A DNA stretch of 64,000 nucleotides from the IMG/VR virus record IMGVR_UViG_3300025096_000009, positions 1 through 64,000 of that record; one strand, written 5' to 3'. Under the pieces are notes generated by a model, which saw nothing but the letters and a program-made list of their open reading frames with translations, searched no databases and was not told where the DNA came from. Source of the DNA: a virus. Positions 5,496 to 60,849 of this stretch are shown one piece after another. Position 1 is the first letter of the stretch. Every line of letters begins with the position of its first letter. A program made the translations under genes and the position numbers.

Positions 5496-6283
5496 TGTCA
5501 AAAACAGGAGATATGGCCACTAAATTTTTAATTAACTTGGGAGCTAATGCTTTCCAAAAGGTGGCAACAGAGTTCGTAGATAGAGCATTTACAAAAACAG
5601 GAGAAGTCCTTGGTGGTATTGGTGACCAAGCTAGAGAAACTACTTATAACAAATACACTGATCCGTTTGATGTACCGACAAAACAGGGGGCTGAACAGGA
5701 TAAAACTGGTAAGTGGGTAGGAGTAAATCCAAGAGAAGTTGGAGCCTATTACACAGATAAAGGAAAGACAATAAAAGGTGGACTAAGACCAGAGGTACCT
5801 GGTGATGATCCATGGAATACCCCTGAGTATGAATCCGATACAGGTACATGGCATGGGCGTAGAACTAAAGAAGCACCTCCTGGAACAGGATGGGATAAAG
5901 GATTTTATGATAACCCTGAGTTGGCCGCACAGGTTGCCTATTATGCTGCGCCTACTACAGCTGTTGGTACAACGTTAGCTGCTGGTAGTTGGTTATTTGG
6001 TGATCGAAGAAAGCCTCAATCTGATTACAGAGTTCCAGTTCAACCAAGCAAAAATCAAGGTGGTTATAACTCAAGTGTTGAATCAGCTTTAGCATCTGCT
6101 AGTGCTAAATATGAATTACAAGAACAAAAACATGCACATGATATGGAACTTCAAAGGTTTAGGGCAGAGTCCAAAACTCCTGGTAAGCAAGGTAATAGTT
6201 ATGATCCTGCTATGCCAAACATCTCTGCTGATGGAGATCCATTAGGTAATCCTTTTGGAAATACACGTACTTACTTTAGCTAA
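5495..6283 (+). CDS. Hypothetical virion protein with hydrophobic segment and short coiled coil
   Basis: APTTAVGTTLAAGSWLFG segment; C-terminal ELQEQKHAHDMELQ. Confidence 0.55.
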   Translation: MSKTGDMATKFLINLGANAFQKVATEFVDRAFTKTGEVLGGIGDQARETTYNKYTDPFDVPTKQGAEQDKTGKWVGVNPREVGAYYTDKGKTIKGGLRPEVPGDDPWNTPEYESDTGTWHGRRTKEAPPGTGWDKGFYDNPELAAQVAYYAAPTTAVGTTLAAGSWLFGDRRKPQSDYRVPVQPSKNQGGYNSSVESALASASAKYELQEQKHAHDMELQRFRAESKTPGKQGNSYDPAMPNISADGDPLGNPFGNTRTYFS

Positions 6284-6320
6284 TGAAGACTATAATAAAA
6301 AAAGTAGGTAAACGTTAATC

Positions 6321-6758
6321 ATGGGATTAGGCACTGGTTTATTTGGAGGTTATGAGACCGCACCAGGGACATCTGGTTGGGGACCTGTAGCTGATGGAGA
6401 TATGTATGGTAGAAATCTTAAAAGACAGAACTGGGATGGTTTTGGAAACAATTTTACATCTGCATTTAATGCTGTAGGTAAATCACAAGGTTGGCTAGAT
6501 CAGCGTAAACAGGATCAGTCTGGTTTTTTTCCATATGCCCAAGGATTTGGAGGAAAATCAGGAGGGGGCTATCAAAAAACAGGGAATAATTCTGGAGTTT
6601 ATACGCATCCTGGACAGGATTATCAGATTATGCACGGTGGCCAGGGCGGCGGCGGTAGTAATAAATTAGGGAACGTAGCATTTGGGGCTGGAACGGGATT
6701 CCTAAAGGGAGGACCAGCTGGAGCCGTTGTTGGTGCTATTGGCGGTTTATTTGCTTAA
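6321..6758 (+). CDS. Gly-rich protein with C-terminal glycine zipper (DNA pilot-like)
   Basis: GNVAFGAGTGFLKGGPAGAVVGAIGGLFA C-terminus. Confidence 0.5.
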   Translation: MGLGTGLFGGYETAPGTSGWGPVADGDMYGRNLKRQNWDGFGNNFTSAFNAVGKSQGWLDQRKQDQSGFFPYAQGFGGKSGGGYQKTGNNSGVYTHPGQDYQIMHGGQGGGGSNKLGNVAFGAGTGFLKGGPAGAVVGAIGGLFA

Positions 6759-6830: not shown

Positions 6831-7637
6831 ATGTGGCAGAACGTAGCGCGGTTAGCCGGTAATCCCAAAGTATTAGGTATATTAGGGAAACTAGGCAATG
6901 TTATTAGGAACCCTGCTTTCATGCCAGTTGCAGGTGGCGCCATTGGTACTGTAAAAGGTGGAATGGAGGATGGTCTTGGTGGAGCAGTCCGAGGGGGCGT
7001 AGGTGGTGCTACTACTGGTGCCGCAATGAAGTGGGGCCTTGGTAAATTACCACCAACTATGTTGCCAATGGGTGCTGCTAAGGTTTTAGGAACAGCTGTT
7101 CCATTAGCAGGAGGAGTAATAGCAGGTGCAACAGCCGTTCCTACTGGAAATGTAGCTGGAGATGCAGCTGGAAAGGTAGCTGGTACCGGTGTGATAATGC
7201 AGCAAAATGAGCCAAACGTTGGAGGTGGATATATCGGTGGACCTGGCAGTGGATCTGGTGGTGGCTACGGTGGCGGCGGTAACGGTCCAGTACCTGTCCT
7301 CGGCGGCGACCATGGTCGAATGGTTCAAGGACCAGATGGTTCCATTTGGCAGGAAATTGATCCTAATGGATGGAAACAAGGTATGAGAGTAGGTAGTGGA
7401 TTAGATACTCAACAGAACATTTCTAATGCTAACCGTTGGTTTAAATCTAGATTCCCACAATCTGAAATGGTTAAGAAAGCTGACTGGGAACGTGAACTAG
7501 CTGCTTTACAGTTAGGCGAAAACATCAAGATGGCTAGAACAATGATGGAAGGTACTCACGCTGGTAATGTAAATATTGCAGAACAAGCTGGTGCTGATAT
7601 GGGACAGTTACTGAACAGTCGTTATCAGTACTTCTAA
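6831..7637 (+). CDS. Glycine-zipper protein with C-terminal helix (DNA pilot-like)
   Basis: GGAIGTVKGG...GGAVRGGVGGATTG; Gly linker; helical C-terminus. Confidence 0.5.
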   Translation: MWQNVARLAGNPKVLGILGKLGNVIRNPAFMPVAGGAIGTVKGGMEDGLGGAVRGGVGGATTGAAMKWGLGKLPPTMLPMGAAKVLGTAVPLAGGVIAGATAVPTGNVAGDAAGKVAGTGVIMQQNEPNVGGGYIGGPGSGSGGGYGGGGNGPVPVLGGDHGRMVQGPDGSIWQEIDPNGWKQGMRVGSGLDTQQNISNANRWFKSRFPQSEMVKKADWERELAALQLGENIKMARTMMEGTHAGNVNIAEQAGADMGQLLNSRYQYF

Positions 7638-7650
7638 ATAGGAGTTAATT

Positions 7651-8490
7651 ATGGGTCAATATTTTAACCAACAGCCAGTAATCAACCTAGGTTCAGGGAC
7701 TACTTTTGGTAATGGTTATACCGATCGTAATGTCAACTTAGGAACATTTCCTATGTATGCCCAACCGCCACGGATGGTGCCTAATCCTGAATATAAAACT
7801 AATCCTTATGGGCTAGAAGATGATCAGGCTCTAGAGAAGTGGGGTAAAAGCAAGAAGATTGTTGGTAAAGATGCTCCAGAAGGACTAATGCGTAATCTTG
7901 CTGGAATTGCAGACTTTTTAACTTTTGGAGTAGGGGATATAGATAGAAGAGGTAATTTATTTGGTGGAGAACATTTACCAGGACTAAGAGGAGGATCAGG
8001 ATATGGAGGACAGGGCGAATTAGGAAATGTTCCACAGACAATGCCTGCTCCACAGATGCCTGCTCCACAGATGACTCAGGAGCCAAATGTTATGACGACA
8101 GGAGGGCCAGTACCTACTAATCAGGGTATGTATGGTCACCTAGCCCAAGCAGGTGGAATAGGAGCATTAAATCATTTTGCAGGTAGGTTTATGAATAATC
8201 AATACCTAAATGATGCATATAATATGGCTCTAAAATCTCGTCAAGCATCTGATGCTCAGAGTGTTTTAACTAGTCAAGCAATGCAAAGAACAGATAAAGG
8301 TGTGTCTGAAAGGATGGAGGAAGAGCAAAAGAGGAGGAATCTTGCCCTGCAGGGTAAATATCTAACTCGTTTAGGTTTGGAATCTATGAAGAAAGGAACG
8401 GCACTGACAAACGTAGCATATGAGCCTAGAGCAAATGCGTCTCACTCTTCCGGTCATGTTGGCAACTGGGGTGTACAAAGAATGGGTTAA
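7651..8490 (+). CDS. Hypothetical virion protein
   Basis: RBS AGGAG; Pro/Gln-rich centre and helical C-terminus. Confidence 0.55.
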   Translation: MGQYFNQQPVINLGSGTTFGNGYTDRNVNLGTFPMYAQPPRMVPNPEYKTNPYGLEDDQALEKWGKSKKIVGKDAPEGLMRNLAGIADFLTFGVGDIDRRGNLFGGEHLPGLRGGSGYGGQGELGNVPQTMPAPQMPAPQMTQEPNVMTTGGPVPTNQGMYGHLAQAGGIGALNHFAGRFMNNQYLNDAYNMALKSRQASDAQSVLTSQAMQRTDKGVSERMEEEQKRRNLALQGKYLTRLGLESMKKGTALTNVAYEPRANASHSSGHVGNWGVQRMG

Positions 8491-10310: not shown

Positions 10311-11834
10311 ATGGCAGGTACAAGCATCTATAGCGTCTACAGACGTACTGCAAGAGCAGCTGCTAAACAGCAGATAGTTAAGAAAACTTCATCTGTTGAT
10401 GTTGATCGTGCTCGTGAAGACTTCGCATATTTTTGTGATGTAGTTGGTAATAAACCACCAGCTGAGCATCATAAACAGTGGCATGAATATCTATGCACAG
10501 GGGAAAGTAGTGGTTGCTTAATTAATATTGCCGGACCAAACATAGATATTCTTGCTCCAAGGGGATCAGCTAAATCTACTGTTCTTGGTTTATTCACGGC
10601 ATGGTCTATTGGTGTACATGCTTTAAGGAGAATGCCACTAAAGATTCTCTATATTTCATACACCGTAGATGTGGCGAGACCGAAGAGTGCTGCAATTAAA
10701 AGAATTATTGAAGAGAATAAGATATACAAAGAGATTTTCCCCACAGTAAAGATTGCTAAAGGGATTAACTCAAATGAGTATTGGAGTATTGATTGGAAAT
10801 TTGCAGGTATTCGATCAACTGGTGAGGAAGAATTTAGTGTTTGTTGTGCAGGTTTGAAAGGTGCAGTTACTTCGAAACGTTCACATCTATGTATTATTGA
10901 TGACGCGATTAAAAGTGCAGATGATATAAAGAATAGGGACATTCGTCAGGCTATGGAGGATAACTGGAATGCTGTCATTGTTCCAACGATGTTTGAAGGC
11001 GGTAGAGCGGTTTGTCTCGGAACTCGTTTCCGCCACGACGATATTCATAACAGCACTTTCACTCCTGCGAATGATTGGGTGCAGATTATTCAGTCTGCTA
11101 TTACAGTGGATTCGAACGGAGACGAGATCTCTTATTGGCCGGATATGTGGTCCTTGGATTACCTTCGTGACCGCAGGAGACAAGCGCCGGTTGCTTTTAG
11201 TTTTCAGTATCAGAATCAGATTGTTCAAACTAGTGAATTATCTCTTTCACCTGATTTAATTGTTAAGGGTTCTATTGCTACTCAATTTGATGCAATGGGA
11301 GTAGGAGTTGATTTATCAGCTGGTGTGAGAGAACAGAATGATTTTACTGTTTTCGTTATGGGAGGACGTATTGGAAATAAGATTCATATCATTGATTGTA
11401 AAAGATTGAGGATAATGGGGAACTTGGAGAAGTTAGAAAGTCTTATGGAAATGATGGAAGAATGGGGAGTTATTCATGGAGAAGGAAAGAATTATTTTGC
11501 TACTGGTAGTTCAGTTCATATTTGGTCAGAAGCTGTTGCCTATCAGGCTTCTTTAGAGGCTGACTTTAAACGAATATGTCAGGGAGAGCATGGTTTATAT
11601 AATATGATTTGGCATGCAGTCAAAGGATTTCGCGGGGACAAAGTTGCTCGCTTTAGGGGAATTATGGGTCTCTTTGAACAACGTCGAATTACTTTTAATA
11701 AGTATCGAAAGTTCACTCATTTGACAGATGAAATTGTAAATTTTGGAGTTAGTTCTCATGATGACTGTGTTGACGCATTGGTATGGCTATGCAATGGATT
11801 GATGTCTAAAGGAAAACTAGAGTTAGAGTATTGA
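10311..11834 (+). CDS. terL: Terminase large subunit
   Basis: Walker A APRGSAKST, Walker B CIIDD, coupling motif LGTR, nuclease acidic motifs GVDLS and HDDCVDA. Confidence 0.93.
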   Translation: MAGTSIYSVYRRTARAAAKQQIVKKTSSVDVDRAREDFAYFCDVVGNKPPAEHHKQWHEYLCTGESSGCLINIAGPNIDILAPRGSAKSTVLGLFTAWSIGVHALRRMPLKILYISYTVDVARPKSAAIKRIIEENKIYKEIFPTVKIAKGINSNEYWSIDWKFAGIRSTGEEEFSVCCAGLKGAVTSKRSHLCIIDDAIKSADDIKNRDIRQAMEDNWNAVIVPTMFEGGRAVCLGTRFRHDDIHNSTFTPANDWVQIIQSAITVDSNGDEISYWPDMWSLDYLRDRRRQAPVAFSFQYQNQIVQTSELSLSPDLIVKGSIATQFDAMGVGVDLSAGVREQNDFTVFVMGGRIGNKIHIIDCKRLRIMGNLEKLESLMEMMEEWGVIHGEGKNYFATGSSVHIWSEAVAYQASLEADFKRICQGEHGLYNMIWHAVKGFRGDKVARFRGIMGLFEQRRITFNKYRKFTHLTDEIVNFGVSSHDDCVDALVWLCNGLMSKGKLELEY

Positions 11835-12063: not shown

Positions 12064-14322
12064 ATGAGTGATACTGCTGTTAAATCTGGTCTCGACGCCA
12101 TTATTAAGTCGGTAGTAAATCGAGATGGTGGAGGAGAGGCCGACACGATGTTGGTTAATGCTCATCTTTCTCAAATGAAAATGTTTGGGATAAGACAAGG
12201 TGTTGAGTTCTATCCCGAGCAAGACAATTTTGGAACACAGAGATTTGATTTCGTTCAACAGGTTATAAAGTTCAACAAACTAGATGCAAGGCTTGATTCA
12301 ATATGGGATAGATTTTTAGCTTATGGAAAAGGACTTTTTTATATAAGACCTACTCAGAAAACTTATCGTCTCTACTGGTTTGATAAAGATTCATATAGAA
12401 CTTATTACACACCAGAAGGTGATTTAGAAGAGGTTGTTATCATATATCCCTATAAAGTTAAGTCTTCTAAGGGGTTTAAGGGTGTTGGGTTAAATACAGA
12501 TAAGCGTTATATGCGTTTACGGATTACTCCAGAAGAGATAGAAGAGTTTCATAGTGAGCAGGAGATAACTTTTGATAATGAAAATTTAGATTATTCCACC
12601 TTTGATAAGAAGGTTCATGAGAACAGCATGGAGTTTATTCCATGTGTTGAGGTCTTTAATAATCCAGACGCTTTTGGAACTGATGGTGCTGGCGAGTTTG
12701 AGTGGTTATCTAGTCAGATAATTGCTCATGATGAGATGGTAAAGAATATTCGTGCAAACTTATCATTCTTTGGTAATCCGACTCTCTTATCTTCACGTCC
12801 GAAGCAAGATATTATTGAACAAAATTCGGATGATGCAGCTCAAAGACCTAGCATTTCAAGTCAATCTGGTTTTCAATCAAACTTTGATCTTTCCAGTTCT
12901 ACTTTTAAACAAGATCCTACAACTAGACAACAACCAGGGTACATAGGGAAACCAGGTAGTGGTTACCGTGTGCCTAGAGTTATCGCCAACTTGGAGCCAA
13001 CAGACCGTGTTGGTTTTATTACTCCTAATGCTGTAGGAACTGATCAGGCTCGCTATGCAGAACAGTTAAGAAGTGAGATACGTCTTGCTTTAGGTGGTAT
13101 TGACGACTTAAGTATTACTAATGTAACTGCTACTGAGATTAAATCAGCTTATGGTCGTGTCAGTGCAACTGCCAAGAAGAAGTGTCTCCAGTTATATACC
13201 TATGGTGTTTGTAAGTGTTTTGAGCTAATGATTTTTCAGGAAGAACAAATCTTCCGTAAGTCTCTTGCTTATCAATCAGGAATTAAATATCCGATTCCTC
13301 CAGAGGATCCTGATGACGAAATTTTATATGAGAAGTATATAAAACAAAAAGAGAGATATGAAAACAAATTGCAGAAGGCTATTGATGCTGCTGTTGAGAC
13401 TAAAGAGATTCCAGATGGTGTTGTTGGATTAGCTCCAGATGGTGATAGGACAGTTAGTTGGCGTTGGATGGGGCCCGTTTATGAGGATACTGCTCAAGAT
13501 AAATTGAACCAATCTATCTTCACTAGGAACCTACAAGAATTGGGTGTTGATAGTATAGAAGCACTGAAGTATTTATTTCCTTCCAAAACCGACGACGAGA
13601 TTGCAGGTATGCTTTCTGGTTATCCGTTTAGAATGGTAGGAGAATTACAGCGGTCATATTCTCAACTTATTGACTTAGTCAATCAAGAAATGAGAACACC
13701 ACATCCACAGCAACCGAATTTACCGATGGCTGCGGATCCAAGATTGGACCTCACTCCATTCCTATACCGAACACTCGAATCATTACAGAAGGAAGTTACT
13801 TATGCAGGACGCTACCGTAGCGCCGACCCAATCGGCACCCCAAGTATCCCAGACCCAGCCGACCAGCTACGTGGCTCCAGCAGCCCAGTCAGCAGCCCAG
13901 GCTCCGGTAGTGGGAACATCTCCCCAATGGGTGGGGACCTCCCAGCCGATGGCGGCACCCGTGGCACAAGCGCCGGGCCAGACGGCAATTCCTTACCAGA
14001 ATTCAGTCCCTACAGCGTACAGCTCCCAGGTATCCCAGGCTCCCCAACAGCAGGAGAACCCATACAAGGAGGCGTTCAACAGAGTAGTGGGCGCCCTGAG
14101 TTCACCAGTCCAATTCCCGTTCCAGGGTCAACAGTCTCCTCAGACGCAAGTAATAGACCCGGCCAGTTACGCTTCCCAACAAACGACCCAGTTCGCCAGT
14201 CAGGTAGCTCCGACCTCTATGCCTGGGATCAGCAGCAACCAGGGATACTCGGCCAATTATTCCCAAACTTCAGCGGACAACCTGGAGATAACCGCAGACC
14301 AGCTCCTAAACAACGGCGTTAG
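12064..14322 (+). CDS. Portal protein with disordered C-terminal extension overprinted on the scaffold gene
   Basis: Position after terL, size, helical core with portal-like layout (FIPCVEVFNN, ATEIK); P/G/S-rich tail. Confidence 0.72.
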   Translation: MSDTAVKSGLDAIIKSVVNRDGGGEADTMLVNAHLSQMKMFGIRQGVEFYPEQDNFGTQRFDFVQQVIKFNKLDARLDSIWDRFLAYGKGLFYIRPTQKTYRLYWFDKDSYRTYYTPEGDLEEVVIIYPYKVKSSKGFKGVGLNTDKRYMRLRITPEEIEEFHSEQEITFDNENLDYSTFDKKVHENSMEFIPCVEVFNNPDAFGTDGAGEFEWLSSQIIAHDEMVKNIRANLSFFGNPTLLSSRPKQDIIEQNSDDAAQRPSISSQSGFQSNFDLSSSTFKQDPTTRQQPGYIGKPGSGYRVPRVIANLEPTDRVGFITPNAVGTDQARYAEQLRSEIRLALGGIDDLSITNVTATEIKSAYGRVSATAKKKCLQLYTYGVCKCFELMIFQEEQIFRKSLAYQSGIKYPIPPEDPDDEILYEKYIKQKERYENKLQKAIDAAVETKEIPDGVVGLAPDGDRTVSWRWMGPVYEDTAQDKLNQSIFTRNLQELGVDSIEALKYLFPSKTDDEIAGMLSGYPFRMVGELQRSYSQLIDLVNQEMRTPHPQQPNLPMAADPRLDLTPFLYRTLESLQKEVTYAGRYRSADPIGTPSIPDPADQLRGSSSPVSSPGSGSGNISPMGGDLPADGGTRGTSAGPDGNSLPEFSPYSVQLPGIPGSPTAGEPIQGGVQQSSGRPEFTSPIPVPGSTVSSDASNRPGQLRFPTNDPVRQSGSSDLYAWDQQQPGILGQLFPNFSGQPGDNRRPAPKQRR

Positions 14323-14848
14323 TCCTGAAAGTATTCAAGTAATTGATCATTTTGGTCCTGACACTGCAGGTATCCTTAATGACTATTCATGTCAACTAGA
14401 AGACGCAGTATCATCTACTCATGGTCAGTTAAATGAAGCAGCAGGTCTACTTCAAGAGCTCTCTCAAGAGCATAGGGTTTACGAAAGAATCCTTACTGAT
14501 CCTGATATTCTTGCTGATTACACTTGTGAGTTCTTCGGTGAAAATGGTCCTTATCCTGTTCCCACCCAGCAGTATGCAGCTCCTCATGGTCAGGCAGTAG
14601 GTCAACAGTTCGCTAATGCTCCTCAGGTTACTGGTCAGCCTAACGTTACTGGACAAGCTCCAGCAGCAGCTCCAACACGCCCTGAGATGCCTGTACCTCC
14701 ACAGCCTCAACAGCAAGGGAACCCAACTGATTTCTGGAATAACTTCGGAAGTGCAGCTGATAGAGACCCACAGAATGCATGGCGTTATTTAAATGCAGCT
14801 CAACAGAGTCCTGAGATCTTCCGCCAGAAGCTTCTGGTAATGGAGTGA
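13802..14848 (+). CDS. Putative capsid scaffolding protein
   Basis: Q/P/A-rich protein with helical core and short helical C-terminus, between portal and capsid; hairpin follows. Confidence 0.6.
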   Translation: MQDATVAPTQSAPQVSQTQPTSYVAPAAQSAAQAPVVGTSPQWVGTSQPMAAPVAQAPGQTAIPYQNSVPTAYSSQVSQAPQQQENPYKEAFNRVVGALSSPVQFPFQGQQSPQTQVIDPASYASQQTTQFASQVAPTSMPGISSNQGYSANYSQTSADNLEITADQLLNNGVSPESIQVIDHFGPDTAGILNDYSCQLEDAVSSTHGQLNEAAGLLQELSQEHRVYERILTDPDILADYTCEFFGENGPYPVPTQQYAAPHGQAVGQQFANAPQVTGQPNVTGQAPAAAPTRPEMPVPPQPQQQGNPTDFWNNFGSAADRDPQNAWRYLNAAQQSPEIFRQKLLVME

Positions 14849-14864
14849 TCGAATAACTAAATGA

Positions 14865-14894
14865 GGGGTAGATGTCTACCCCCTATTCATTTTT
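14865..14894 (+). terminator. Stem-loop after scaffold gene
   Basis: GGGGTAGA-TG-TCTACCCC inverted repeat followed by a T-rich tract. Confidence 0.45.
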
Positions 14895-14897
14895 ACA

Positions 14898-15302
14898 ATG
14901 GCAAAAAAGAAAGCTAGCGCACAAGATAAAGCAGATGCATTCCTTGCGGGGTTAGGCACAGCTGGAGGAGCAATTGGTGCGCCTGGGTTAGTTACCTTCG
15001 GTGCAGGAGATACGCAGCGTCAGTTGATGACTGGAACTATGGATAATAATTGGGCAGTAAAAGAACAACAGCTAGTTGAAGATGCTCCAATGCCTCAGAA
15101 TTTAGATGCTTCATATTTAAAATTAAATCTTCCAGGTTCACCTTTACCTATGAATGGTTTGTTATCTAACCAGAACCTCGATGCTAGTATTAGCAATCAG
15201 AAGATGTTTCTTGCACAATACCAAATGACGTTGGCACAGATGATGCCGCCAGCTGCATTTCAACAGCTCCCAATGGGCTATCCACCTCTTAAGAAAAAAT
15301 GA
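14898..15302 (+). CDS. Hypothetical head-associated protein
   Basis: ORF between scaffold and capsid; carries QDKADAFLAGLG motif. Confidence 0.55.
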   Translation: MAKKKASAQDKADAFLAGLGTAGGAIGAPGLVTFGAGDTQRQLMTGTMDNNWAVKEQQLVEDAPMPQNLDASYLKLNLPGSPLPMNGLLSNQNLDASISNQKMFLAQYQMTLAQMMPPAAFQQLPMGYPPLKKK

Positions 15303-15632: not shown

Positions 15633-16778
15633 ATGTTTATTGACAATGATTTCCCGAAGCTGTTGGGTGCGGAACTATACCGTCCCCATCCAGCTTATAT
15701 AGTGGAAATGGCTGCAGAGCCAGTCGTCGTACACGACTTTACTAAGCAACCGGGTCAAACTGTTCAGCTAGATCGTTACCGTTTCTTCGGTAACCCTGGC
15801 ACGAAGACACAACGTGAGCGTACTCAGGATCAAACCATCGGTACAGCAAACAGTAGGTCTATCGTTAAGGACAAAGTACTTGTATCTCTTCGTGAGTATA
15901 CAGGTCCTGCTGACCCAAATAATAACGCTCTCCCTAGCACATTCAAAATTGCTCGTGAGACATTAATGACCGCTCAGCGTTTGCTGCTTGATACTGGGAA
16001 CCTTAATATGTTCCACCAGTCAATAGGTAGCCTTACGCTTCTTGATGACTACCGGAGATGGAGAGATAGAGTCTTCATTGACGAACTTTTCAAGACTGAA
16101 TCACGTGGTCAAAGTAGTGATTCACAAGGTGGATACTACTACCCTAATAACAAGGCTAAGACAAACTCAACTACTCTTACTGCTTATACAGCTACAGAGT
16201 ACGCTTCTGAGCGCTTTAAGTTCAATGTAAAAACTGACCTTCTAGAAGTTGTTAAGAGTCTACGTAAGCGTCACGTACCAGTTTTCGCAGATGGCTACTA
16301 TCGTTGCATAGCAGATCCTTCACTTATGAAAGATCTTCGTGCTGATCAAGGCTTCCGTGAAGTTGCACGTTACCCAGGAATGGGCGCTCCTAACCCTCTT
16401 ATGGGTGCACAAGCTCCTAACTCAGCTATCTACGGTGGCGGCCAATTCGGTCAGGCACAATTCGTAGCTGGAGAGCCAGTTATGCCATCAGGCTTCGTTT
16501 TTGAAGGTGTAAGATTCTTCGAATCTACAAACTTCCCAGGAAAAACTATCACGGTCGACATCGGTGATGGTAATGGAGCCGTTTCAAAAGACACTCCTGC
16601 AGGATTATTCTTCGGTCCTCAGGCAATCGGTGTAGGTATTGGTGGTCCAAATGCTCAAGTTCTAATTAATAACAACGATGACTTCTCAAGATTCATCATT
16701 CTTATTTGGCAGCTTTATGCTGGTTTTGCGAACTTGAATAAGGACTTCATCACTACAGCCTTCACTGTATCTGAGTAA
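15633..16778 (+). CDS. Major capsid protein
   Basis: 381 aa, after portal/scaffold; high-expression codon bias (ttc, tac, aac, cgt); HK97-like features (PGQTVQL, GFVFEGVRFFES, FFGPQAIG, NDDFSR); own TATAAT at 15528. Confidence 0.8.
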   Translation: MFIDNDFPKLLGAELYRPHPAYIVEMAAEPVVVHDFTKQPGQTVQLDRYRFFGNPGTKTQRERTQDQTIGTANSRSIVKDKVLVSLREYTGPADPNNNALPSTFKIARETLMTAQRLLLDTGNLNMFHQSIGSLTLLDDYRRWRDRVFIDELFKTESRGQSSDSQGGYYYPNNKAKTNSTTLTAYTATEYASERFKFNVKTDLLEVVKSLRKRHVPVFADGYYRCIADPSLMKDLRADQGFREVARYPGMGAPNPLMGAQAPNSAIYGGGQFGQAQFVAGEPVMPSGFVFEGVRFFESTNFPGKTITVDIGDGNGAVSKDTPAGLFFGPQAIGVGIGGPNAQVLINNNDDFSRFIILIWQLYAGFANLNKDFITTAFTVSE

Positions 16779-59034: not shown

Positions 59035-60081
59035 TTACTTCAGGCCACCAGCGAGTGCACCGGTTTCGTCTCGTTCTCCTATGGATGGAGCAAGGATTGC
59101 TACAGTCCCTTGAGGTTGTAATGCTGGAACTCCATCAGCAATTCCATAAGCACCTGCAAGTTTTGCAGCTTCTTGTGCACTATGCTTATTAATATAATCG
59201 CTTAGAAAATCATCTTTTTGTTGTTGCCAAGCTAACTCCCAATCTTTTTTATGAAGAGTATATTTAAATACCTCTTGTTCTGCTGATTTTCTATCTGTAT
59301 ATTCAGGAGTCAATACACTTTCAACGCCAGCATAAGAATATGTTTTTCCAGTTAGCTCATTTGTATCTTTGATAATTTTAAATCTAGGGCAAAAAGCATA
59401 GATAACGTGTGCTTCTTTGGAGAATTTTGCTGCAGCTCCTAGATCTTGTGCTCTGCTCATACATTTATCCATGTTGTTATAGAATTTTGTTAGAGATTCG
59501 CTAACACTGCGACTTACTGAAGGACTAAGTGTTAGAACAATAGGAACTTCATGTGCTAATTCATTCTCTTTGGTAAGAATGTTAACTAGATATTTCCGTC
59601 TAGTACTATATTTTGATTGTCTTGGATTGGGTTTTGCGTTAGCAGCTGCAATTTTCTCTGCGTTAAATGCGTCTTTTATAGGCTCCATACTGAGATCACC
59701 GACGGTAATATTCATGCTTCTCCCCTTATTGTTTTTAATAGAATTATCAATTACGAGTATTCCAGAGGCATGAATAATTTGGAGACGTGGAGCAACAAAG
59801 CAATGCATTGTTTCTCTATCTCCTCCGTCGAAAATATGTACACGATTCCAATGAACCGTATTTTCTTCAAAATCGTCTTCTTTAGCAGTCCATTTACATC
59901 CTTTTAGATCTGATTCTCTAATAGCAAGATAAGCAAGGTCGTCTCTTGTATCATAAAGAGGCTGTAATGTTCCTAGACCTTGGATACCTTCTCTGTATTC
60001 TGGACTATTGAACATTGCAAAGTCGTCAAAACTGCGTGTTTCAAGAGAAGAGTTGTTTTTAGTTGTTTTAGCTGGGGTCAT
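59035..60081 (-). CDS. DUF5895-like cyanobacterial/phage protein
   Basis: FNSPEY...LQ, PRLQII, RRKYLVNILTKENELAHEVPIVLTL. Confidence 0.5.
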   Translation of the reverse strand: MTPAKTTKNNSSLETRSFDDFAMFNSPEYREGIQGLGTLQPLYDTRDDLAYLAIRESDLKGCKWTAKEDDFEENTVHWNRVHIFDGGDRETMHCFVAPRLQIIHASGILVIDNSIKNNKGRSMNITVGDLSMEPIKDAFNAEKIAAANAKPNPRQSKYSTRRKYLVNILTKENELAHEVPIVLTLSPSVSRSVSESLTKFYNNMDKCMSRAQDLGAAAKFSKEAHVIYAFCPRFKIIKDTNELTGKTYSYAGVESVLTPEYTDRKSAEQEVFKYTLHKKDWELAWQQQKDDFLSDYINKHSAQEAAKLAGAYGIADGVPALQPQGTVAILAPSIGERDETGALAGGLK

Positions 60082-60129
60082 TGCTTGGATGATTAGTGTT
60101 TGTTAAAAGGATAGCGATGTTTGGGATTT

Positions 60130-60849
60130 TTAGAAAGGGATATCATCCTTAGGAGGATTTTTAATATCCACAGGTTTTGCAATTGCTTGTTGATGAGGTG
60201 AGTCAAAAATCTCAGCCTTATCAAAGGATGCAATTGGTGGATTCTTTTCTTCAGTCTTTTGATTCTTACCAAAGAAGGAATACTGAGCAGATCTAACTCT
60301 GATTTTGTAGTTAGTTCTTACATTGCCTTCTTTGTCAGTCCAATGATCAAATTTAAGAGTTCCTCCTAAGGACATTTGTCTACCTACAAAGAGGAATTTC
60401 TTCATACGTCCTGCATCGTCACCCCAGCTTTCAATACGGAAGCCAAGACTGTCTTGCCAATCATGCTTAAGGGTTTTCTGTTTAGGAGCTTGGCACATTA
60501 AGCCAAAGTTAAAGCAGTCTTCTCTGCGTTGTTCTCCTATAAAACCAACTCCACCTGCTAGGTGAACATGATTCAGAGTTGTGCCTTCTTTGATTATCTG
60601 TAGAGGCTGAACTGGGACGATATACATCTTTTGATCTTCATTCGGATAAAGACGTCCATTTATTAGTACGTTTAAACCTTCTGTGAAGGCACCCGGAGCA
60701 CAGCTATCTCCAGCTGCATAACTAGGGATAACGAAGATCGGTATTATAGGAGTTTTTCCAGTACTTGGAATTTCAAAGCGCAGTGTTCGTAGACCTGACT
60801 CCATTGCGGAATCTCCGGTGTACTTGGCGCATGCATTAATAATGTTCAT
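60130..60849 (-). CDS. ssb: Single-stranded DNA-binding protein (tandem OB folds)
   Basis: NHVHLAGGVG, IESWG, GTLKFDHWTDKEG, acidic DDIPF C-terminus. Confidence 0.85.
   Translation of the reverse strand: MNIINACAKYTGDSAMESGLRTLRFEIPSTGKTPIIPIFVIPSYAAGDSCAPGAFTEGLNVLINGRLYPNEDQKMYIVPVQPLQIIKEGTTLNHVHLAGGVGFIGEQRREDCFNFGLMCQAPKQKTLKHDWQDSLGFRIESWGDDAGRMKKFLFVGRQMSLGGTLKFDHWTDKEGNVRTNYKIRVRSAQYSFFGKNQKTEEKNPPIASFDKAEIFDSPHQQAIAKPVDIKNPPKDDIPF

Follow-up and report, generated by a model that had tools for sequence, protein, structure and literature searches.

The stretch of DNA analysed here (the window) is a 64-kb part, positions 1 to 64,000, of the 79.6-kb IMG/VR virus record IMGVR_UViG_3300025096_000009, an S-EIV1-like cyanophage; the public runs containing window sequence are marine metagenomes. 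Within its head module, the portal gene and the gene for a scaffold-like protein share 521 nt of one strand in different reading frames. This is very probably a real and ancient dual-coding region, with the portal tail and the N-terminal half of the scaffold-like protein both under selection. The two genes and the shared stretch are as follows.

12064..14322, plus strand: portal gene, 752 aa, with a predicted folded core (residues 1-581) and a predicted disordered tail (residues 582-752)
13802..14848, plus strand: scaffold-like gene, 348 aa, in the +1 frame relative to the portal
13802..14322, plus strand: proposed dual-coding overlap, a GC-rich island of 521 nt or 173 codons in each frame

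The overlap comprises portal residues 580-752 and scaffold residues 1-173. Several features noted in an initial annotation of this DNA were borne out on inspection. The portal open reading frame (ORF) indeed stays open for 173 codons into the scaffold gene, in a region visibly richer in GC than its surroundings (0.555-0.655 in windows spanning 13700-14200 and 0.47 by 14200-14399, against 0.32-0.44, approximately 0.38, in the flanks). The same annotation had counted about 19 scaffold codons that avoid a T ending which would create a stop in the portal frame. A recount identified 25 scaffold codons followed by a codon starting with AA, AG or GA, of which 20 could carry a T-ending synonym; T is avoided at 19 of these 20, and the twentieth, GTT-AGT at 14318, is the portal stop itself (TAG, 14320-14322). 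T-ending codons were likewise found to resume past the overlap, T occupying 15% of scaffold third positions within it and 45% downstream, and residue percentages agree with the description of both products as low in complexity (Pro 16%, Gly 15% and Ser 15% for the portal tail; Gln 17%, Ala 14%, Ser 13% and Pro 11% for the scaffold N-half).

The weight of this pattern in a single genome was assessed by keeping the scaffold protein fixed and resampling its synonymous codons at genome usage. Over 20,000 trials, the resampled codons contained a mean of 10 portal-frame stops and none was stop-free (0/20,000). Local permutation of the scaffold codons left the portal frame stop-free at P = 0.033, and the reverse test, with the tail amino acids fixed, left the scaffold frame stop-free at P = 0.15-0.18. 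Because of the latter two values, the one-genome signal is only moderate, and the comparative evidence is decisive. It could be argued from these tests that only one frame makes a functional product, the other being open by chance in a GC-rich, low-complexity stretch, given that the scaffold frame is stop-free in 15-18% of resamplings and the portal frame in 3% when local codon usage is used. The GC island also contains two minus-strand ORFs of 58 and 54 aa (13812-13988 and 14102-14266, respectively), which could be taken to point the same way. These antisense ORFs look like by-products of GC-richness, as the minus-strand frames hold 5-7 stops over the whole overlap.

Related contigs number approximately 580 in IMG/VR, and three sets of loci were compared. 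Within the window's own clade (portal identity 78-95%), both frames are open in 72/72 complete loci, with an overlap of 512-548 nt and an identical ATG position in every locus. Both frames are also open in 68 loci of the S-EIV1 clade (portal identity about 53%; overlap 497-662 nt) and in 12 distant loci (portal identity 30-35%; overlap 65-584 nt, always +1), where the downstream gene starts within the portal tail. The distant loci were found by IMG/VR scans with alignments, single-protein scans (P0150, P0185, P0194) having given nothing. Taken over all of the more than 150 loci examined, the frame offset is +1 and the overlap ranges from 65 to 662 nt. The phage collection contains one cultured relative, Synechococcus phage S-EIVl (portal 52% and scaffold-like protein 39% identical), which has the same arrangement, with an overlap of 554 nt and a scaffold-like ORF of 325 aa.

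The GenBank entry for S-EIVl, KJ410740, annotates only 59863..60264, corresponding to the last 133 codons of its scaffold-like gene (AHV82225.1). Followed literally, this annotation implies that the scaffold-like protein starts after the portal stop, so that there is no meaningful overlap. We consider such a late start extremely unlikely: the scaffold frame of the window has no ATG past the portal stop until approximately residue 297, the best conserved scaffold motif (14054-14131) lies upstream of the portal stop, scaffold-frame conservation already exceeds that of the portal frame at 13873-13944, and gene calls on many contigs give the full-length product of 330-350 aa. The region around the upstream ATG is as follows.

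13787..13804, plus strand: scaffold start region, with the purine run AGAAGGAAG (13787-13795) in portal Gln-Lys-Glu codons and the ATG at 13802-13804

The scaffold ATG sits within TAT GCA, the Tyr-Ala codons of the portal, exactly at the end of the predicted portal fold. An AAGGA or GAGG sequence 8-13 nt upstream of it, together with an ATG inside TATGxx, is kept in lineages down to approximately 30% portal identity; TATGxx represents the conserved Tyr-Gly or Tyr-Ala codons closing the portal core, and the purine run lies in Lys-Glu codons. In most relatives an in-frame TAA is located 6 nt upstream of the scaffold ATG. The internal start signal embedded in portal codons is conserved, its ATG in all loci. 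Because the ATG lies in the conserved TATGxx that ends the core, the length of the overlap equals three times that of the tail, within 5 nt, in most lineages.

To quantify constraint, Fitch changes per site were counted on a tree derived from non-overlapping portal DNA. Third positions used by one gene only are fast in both clades (portal-only 11.4 in the window's clade and 11.9 in the S-EIV1 clade; scaffold-only 11.8 and 11.6, respectively). Within the overlap, rates fall for the third positions of both frames and in both clades: to 4.0-4.1 (window's clade) and 4.2 (S-EIV1 clade) where the portal third position is the scaffold second, and to 4.9-5.1 and 6.4 where the scaffold third position is the portal first. 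An OLGenie-style test applied to the overlap gave a dNN/dSN of 0.50 (0.40-0.61) for the portal and a dNN/dNS of 0.39 (0.32-0.47) for the scaffold. Fake frames placed in the non-overlapping flanks served as controls and gave 1.38 (1.14-1.71) for the portal-like frame and 0.81 (0.70-0.95) for the +1 frame, so the result is no artefact of the estimator.

Amino-acid changes per site reveal how this constraint is distributed. Both frames are conserved at 13801-13872, and the scaffold frame is conserved more than the portal frame at 13873-13944. At 14053-14124 the scaffold motif ENPYKEAFNRVVGAL...PFQGQ is almost invariant (0.9-2.3 changes/site, compared with 4.3-6.8 for the portal), and at 14197-14268 the roles are reversed, the portal motif ...QPGILGQLFPNF being conserved (1.5-2.6 changes/site) where the scaffold frame is variable (6.8-7.2). 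The portal third position is once more the fastest-changing one in the latter segment. Constraint thus alternates between the frames, and neither frame alone explains the pattern. The substitution patterns show purifying selection on both frames, and the two genes would then form an overprinted pair. They also leave very little credence for an opening by chance of one frame: the more than 150 loci with both frames open come from lineages whose silent sites are saturated, each frame is the better conserved in some segments, dN/dS is below 1 in both, unlike the fake-frame controls, and motifs of both frames survive at 30-40% identity.

Low silent variation extends beyond the overlap into a stretch of the portal gene where a single frame is open.

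13519..13800, plus strand: portal coding stretch of approximately 280 nt with unexplained synonymous-site conservation

The portal third-position rate in this stretch is 5.2-6.9, compared with 10-15 elsewhere, and the effect is replicated in the second clade. The blocks GTTGATAG.AT.GAAGCACTGAA and CCGATGGCTGCGGATCC are invariant across both clades, third positions included, and no alternative ORF within 13519-13800 accounts for the silent-site conservation. These observations favour an explanation in which a nucleic-acid element, such as an RNA structure, an internal promoter or a recombination linker, causes the low silent variation with no second frame involved. Conservation inside the overlap, by contrast, follows codon phase and alternates between the frames, and amino-acid motifs persist where nucleotides have diverged. 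The RNAalifold consensus is weak (-15 kcal/mol, with little covariation), no Rfam match was obtained in 13300-15000, and a promoter scan returned no plus-strand sigma-70-like promoter ahead of the scaffold start. As a replacement for dual coding, an element of this kind is therefore most improbable; upstream of the overlap and additional to it, such an element may well be present, and 13519-13800 may serve as an internal element regulating the scaffold-like gene. Neither the class comparisons made within the region nor the motif conservation described above depends on the upstream silent-site effect.

The identity of the upstream gene is clear. Searched against PHROGs, the 752-aa protein matches phrog_20475 across residues 7-745 (E = 4e-213) and, weakly, phrog_64, 'portal protein' (E = 1.2e-5). 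The AF2 model has a pLDDT of 70-90 across residues 1-581, indicating a folded core, and of 31-44 across residues 582-752. The Foldseek matches of the portal fold listed from the PDB are all phage portal chains or portal-containing assemblies (best E = 3e-10, probability 1.00) and include those of 80alpha, SaPI1, T7, SPP1 and cyanophages. The order of the head module is terL, the 752-aa ORF, the 348-aa ORF, two small ORFs and the major capsid protein (MCP), and a position beside the large terminase is as expected of a phage portal. The 752-aa protein is a portal. Its neighbours in the module are as follows.

10311-11834: terL (phrog_38, E = 2e-77), adjoining the portal gene
15633-16778: MCP (phrog_1357)

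Three elements stand out within the portal tail.

14098..14136, plus strand: portal-tail motif 1, EFTSPIPVPGSTV, the single tail segment with raised pLDDT
14206..14271, plus strand: portal-tail motif 2, SSDLYAWDQQQPGILGQLFPNF, conserved in the portal frame and variable in the scaffold frame, and kept in distant portals
14287..14319, plus strand: basic C-terminal tip, DNRRPAPKQRR, at the end of the portal tail

The AF2 model treats the tail as disordered save for a rise in pLDDT to approximately 70 at the SPIPVPGST motif, and the segment around 14098-14131 carries motifs of both proteins. To survey tails more widely, 1.84 billion 50%-identity representatives were searched, yielding 314 relatives; 150 of these were listed, and 73 full-length representatives were used for the tails. 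Tails are nearly universal among the 73. A PxPG[ST]T[VI]-like motif is present in 38/73, an xxLFPxF-type hydrophobic motif in 11/73 by a strict pattern and 20/73 by a looser one, and at least 4 Lys/Arg among the last 15 residues in 45/73. The tail motifs (PxPxPG[ST]T[VI], QPGILxQLFPxF and the basic C-terminal end) persist in portals only 30-47% identical to the query.

The initial annotation had proposed either that the long disordered tail is functional or that a frameshift makes a portal-scaffold fusion which nucleates the procapsid. The first part is supported by the frame that is open in all homologs, the dNN/dSN of 0.50 against 1.38 for the control, and the persistence of the tail motifs. 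The second part is not supported. A +1 slip anywhere within the 521 nt would indeed join the portal core to the helical half of the scaffold, and such a fusion could seed the procapsid beside or instead of the separate products, but nothing else supports it. The scaffold ORF has its own conserved ATG preceded by a Shine-Dalgarno-like run, and no suitable slippery site was found: the scaffold frame contains no -1 slippery heptamer (X_XXY_YYZ), and the overlap contains no homopolymer run of 5 or more. The sole portal-frame heptamer, C_CCA_AAC (14262-14268; 58/72 loci), is probably incidental, because it coincides with the LFPNF codons and leads into a third frame with 9 stops. Furthermore, motif conservation towards the C-terminus of the tail shows that the zero-frame product is the one under selection, and the longest of the 150 representatives listed is 843 aa, too short for a fused form. 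A programmed +1 frameshift within the overlap is, on this evidence, very unlikely.

The downstream protein is best conserved within its overlapping half.

14054..14131, plus strand: scaffold-frame motif, ENPYKEAFNRVVGALSSPVQFPFQGQ, corresponding to a predicted helix (residues 87-100) and the best conserved part of the protein

This motif is recognisable in the distant loci L083 and L093. The AF2 model of the scaffold-like protein, which is of low confidence (mean pLDDT 46.6), predicts disorder at residues 1-86 and 100-162, a short helix at 87-100, a helical region at 165-245 and a C-terminal helical pair at 308-341. The gene lies between those for the portal and the MCP, and directly precedes the MCP gene in two loci (L089 and L171). 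Searches of PHROGs (with the query and 33 relatives), of the PDB (profile searches with both alignments) and of the ESM Atlas gave no match, and Pfam gave no significant match, its single hit scoring well under the curated cut-off. Between the scaffold-like gene, 17 nt past its stop, and the next ORF (14898) lies a terminator-like hairpin, GGGGTAGA TGTC TACCCC (14865-14882), with 7 pairs and a weak T-rich tail.

With respect to age, a tree of the portal core places tails of at least 83 aa in all major branches, the deepest included, and restricts short tails (18-64 aa) to one nested subclade. A tail-less ancestral state was considered and dropped, as the short-tailed portals nest inside long-tailed lineages. 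The tail, and the overlap wherever DNA is available, accordingly looks ancestral on the core tree, with the short forms secondary, and the age of the arrangement appears to match that of the portal family. Codon usage cannot tell which of the two frames is the older, because both are equally distorted: the fit to the genome is similarly poor for the two overlap frames (-1.47 and -1.55 log-likelihood per codon, compared with -0.9 to -1.0 in the flanks). In composition the tail is unlike the portal core, whereas the N-half of the scaffold-like protein is similar to the C-half; this contrast weakly favours the tail as the overprinted reading.

Taken together, a real and ancient dual-coding region is very probably the correct explanation of the locus. 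Under this explanation, ribosomes starting at the portal ATG (12064) would read to 14322, making the core to approximately residue 581 and then the 171-residue Pro/Gly/Ser-rich disordered tail. Other ribosomes would start at the internal ATG (13802), preceded by the Shine-Dalgarno-like run and set inside the portal ...QKE-x-x-Y-A codons, and would read the DNA one base on to produce the Gln/Ala/Pro-rich N-half of a scaffold-like head protein, whose folded, helical part is predicted to begin about where the portal stops. Since the portal fold ends at residue 581 and the scaffold helices start at approximately residue 165, the overlap lies where both proteins are predicted to be flexible. Constraint would thus be shared out, with short motifs of one protein sitting where the other is free to vary. 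Independent initiation would presumably allow the scaffold-like protein to be made in far more copies than the portal.

Some points weigh against this explanation. We infer translation of both frames from evolution. The label 'scaffold' comes from gene position and predicted architecture only, with no family support. In addition, the low upstream silent rates imply that some nucleotide-level constraint, or a shallower genealogy, contributes in this neighbourhood. Four runs labelled RNA-Seq, one of them only presumed to be RNA, contain contigs that cover parts of both genes, the overlap included; these contigs are mostly those of relatives and speak to presence only.

The portal C-terminus sits in the crown, and the tails are therefore presumably placed inside the capsid. 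It is possible, if on balance doubtful, that twelve tails hang into the capsid, where the hydrophobic motif and the basic tip would bind scaffold, coat or DNA and help to nucleate or organise the portal vertex. A more detailed and more speculative proposal, which we consider rather unlikely, is that QPGILxQLFPxF on a tether of approximately 150 residues docks scaffold or coat while the tip contacts DNA, a form of 'fly-casting' vertex nucleation; overprinting would keep the partners genetically inseparable, and the silent sites at 13519-13800 would set the portal-to-scaffold ratio. A complex prediction for tail residues 640-752 and scaffold residues 80-348, made with alignments, scored 0.00, which counts neither for nor against binding.

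Overprinting is of a known kind. In the case of the Rz/Rz1 spanin genes of lambda (18.5/18.7 in T7), a conserved same-strand pair with its second gene in the +1 frame serves one process from separate starts. The pair described here is likewise a conserved, same-strand, +1 pair with separate starts. Rz1, however, has approximately 60 codons and lies wholly inside Rz, whereas here the 3' third of the portal gene overlaps the 5' half of the scaffold gene over 173 codons, and head-assembly genes, predicted disordered regions and alternating constraint are involved. Textbook examples of out-of-frame overlaps hundreds of bases long come from tiny phages and RNA viruses. The A/B, D/E and A/K pairs of phiX174 and the lysis gene of MS2 are under dual selection, with one product typically disordered and of unusual composition. 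The genomes of these small phages are 3.5-5.4 kb and capsid size is thought to press for compaction, in contrast to the 80-kb tailed phage studied here, in which nearly all other overlaps are a few bases long. In tailed phages, with their less tightly squeezed genomes, such overlaps are considered rare.

A closer functional parallel is provided by lambda C/Nu3, Mu I/Z and the P2-type protease/scaffold genes, where the scaffold is made from an internal start in the preceding head gene as a separate, more abundant product. The scaffold-like protein would also arise from an internal start in the preceding head gene, but in the lambda C/Nu3 type the start is in-frame and the scaffold is the C-terminus of the larger protein, while here the frames differ and the peptides are unrelated. 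With regard to the tail, the core of the P22 portal carries a C-terminal extension of more than 100 residues, which reaches from the crown into the interior of the capsid, and the present portal core similarly has over 100 residues added at its C-terminus. In P22 this extension forms a barrel of helical coiled coil and has coding DNA to itself; the present tail is Pro/Gly/Ser-rich, predicted to be disordered, equipped with linear motifs and a basic tip, and co-encoded. Literature searches on a portal/scaffold overlap or overprinting found nothing relevant. The portal/scaffold-like pair appears to be new, and the overlap is unusually long and old for a tailed phage.

Two essential head genes would share more than 500 bases in a group of cyanophages, marine and freshwater, that is both large and abundant (more than 2,000 protein clusters and approximately 580 IMG/VR contigs). 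The group offers a sequence-rich natural system for how two proteins can share DNA, where both are predicted to be disordered and short motifs take turns, and draws attention to a conserved portal appendage not known to have been studied. At 19 positions, a substitution synonymous in the scaffold-like gene would truncate the tail, which makes the role of the tail cleanly testable. There is also a lesson for annotation, the GenBank record of S-EIVl having truncated the downstream gene to 133 aa. The same record (L001, KJ410740) seems mis-annotated in its head module, at 5739-6716 and 7311-8435: besides the truncated scaffold-like gene, the S-EIVl homolog of the MCP, 69% identical to that of the window and found as one intact plus-strand match, is covered by a minus-strand coding sequence together with a short plus-strand one.

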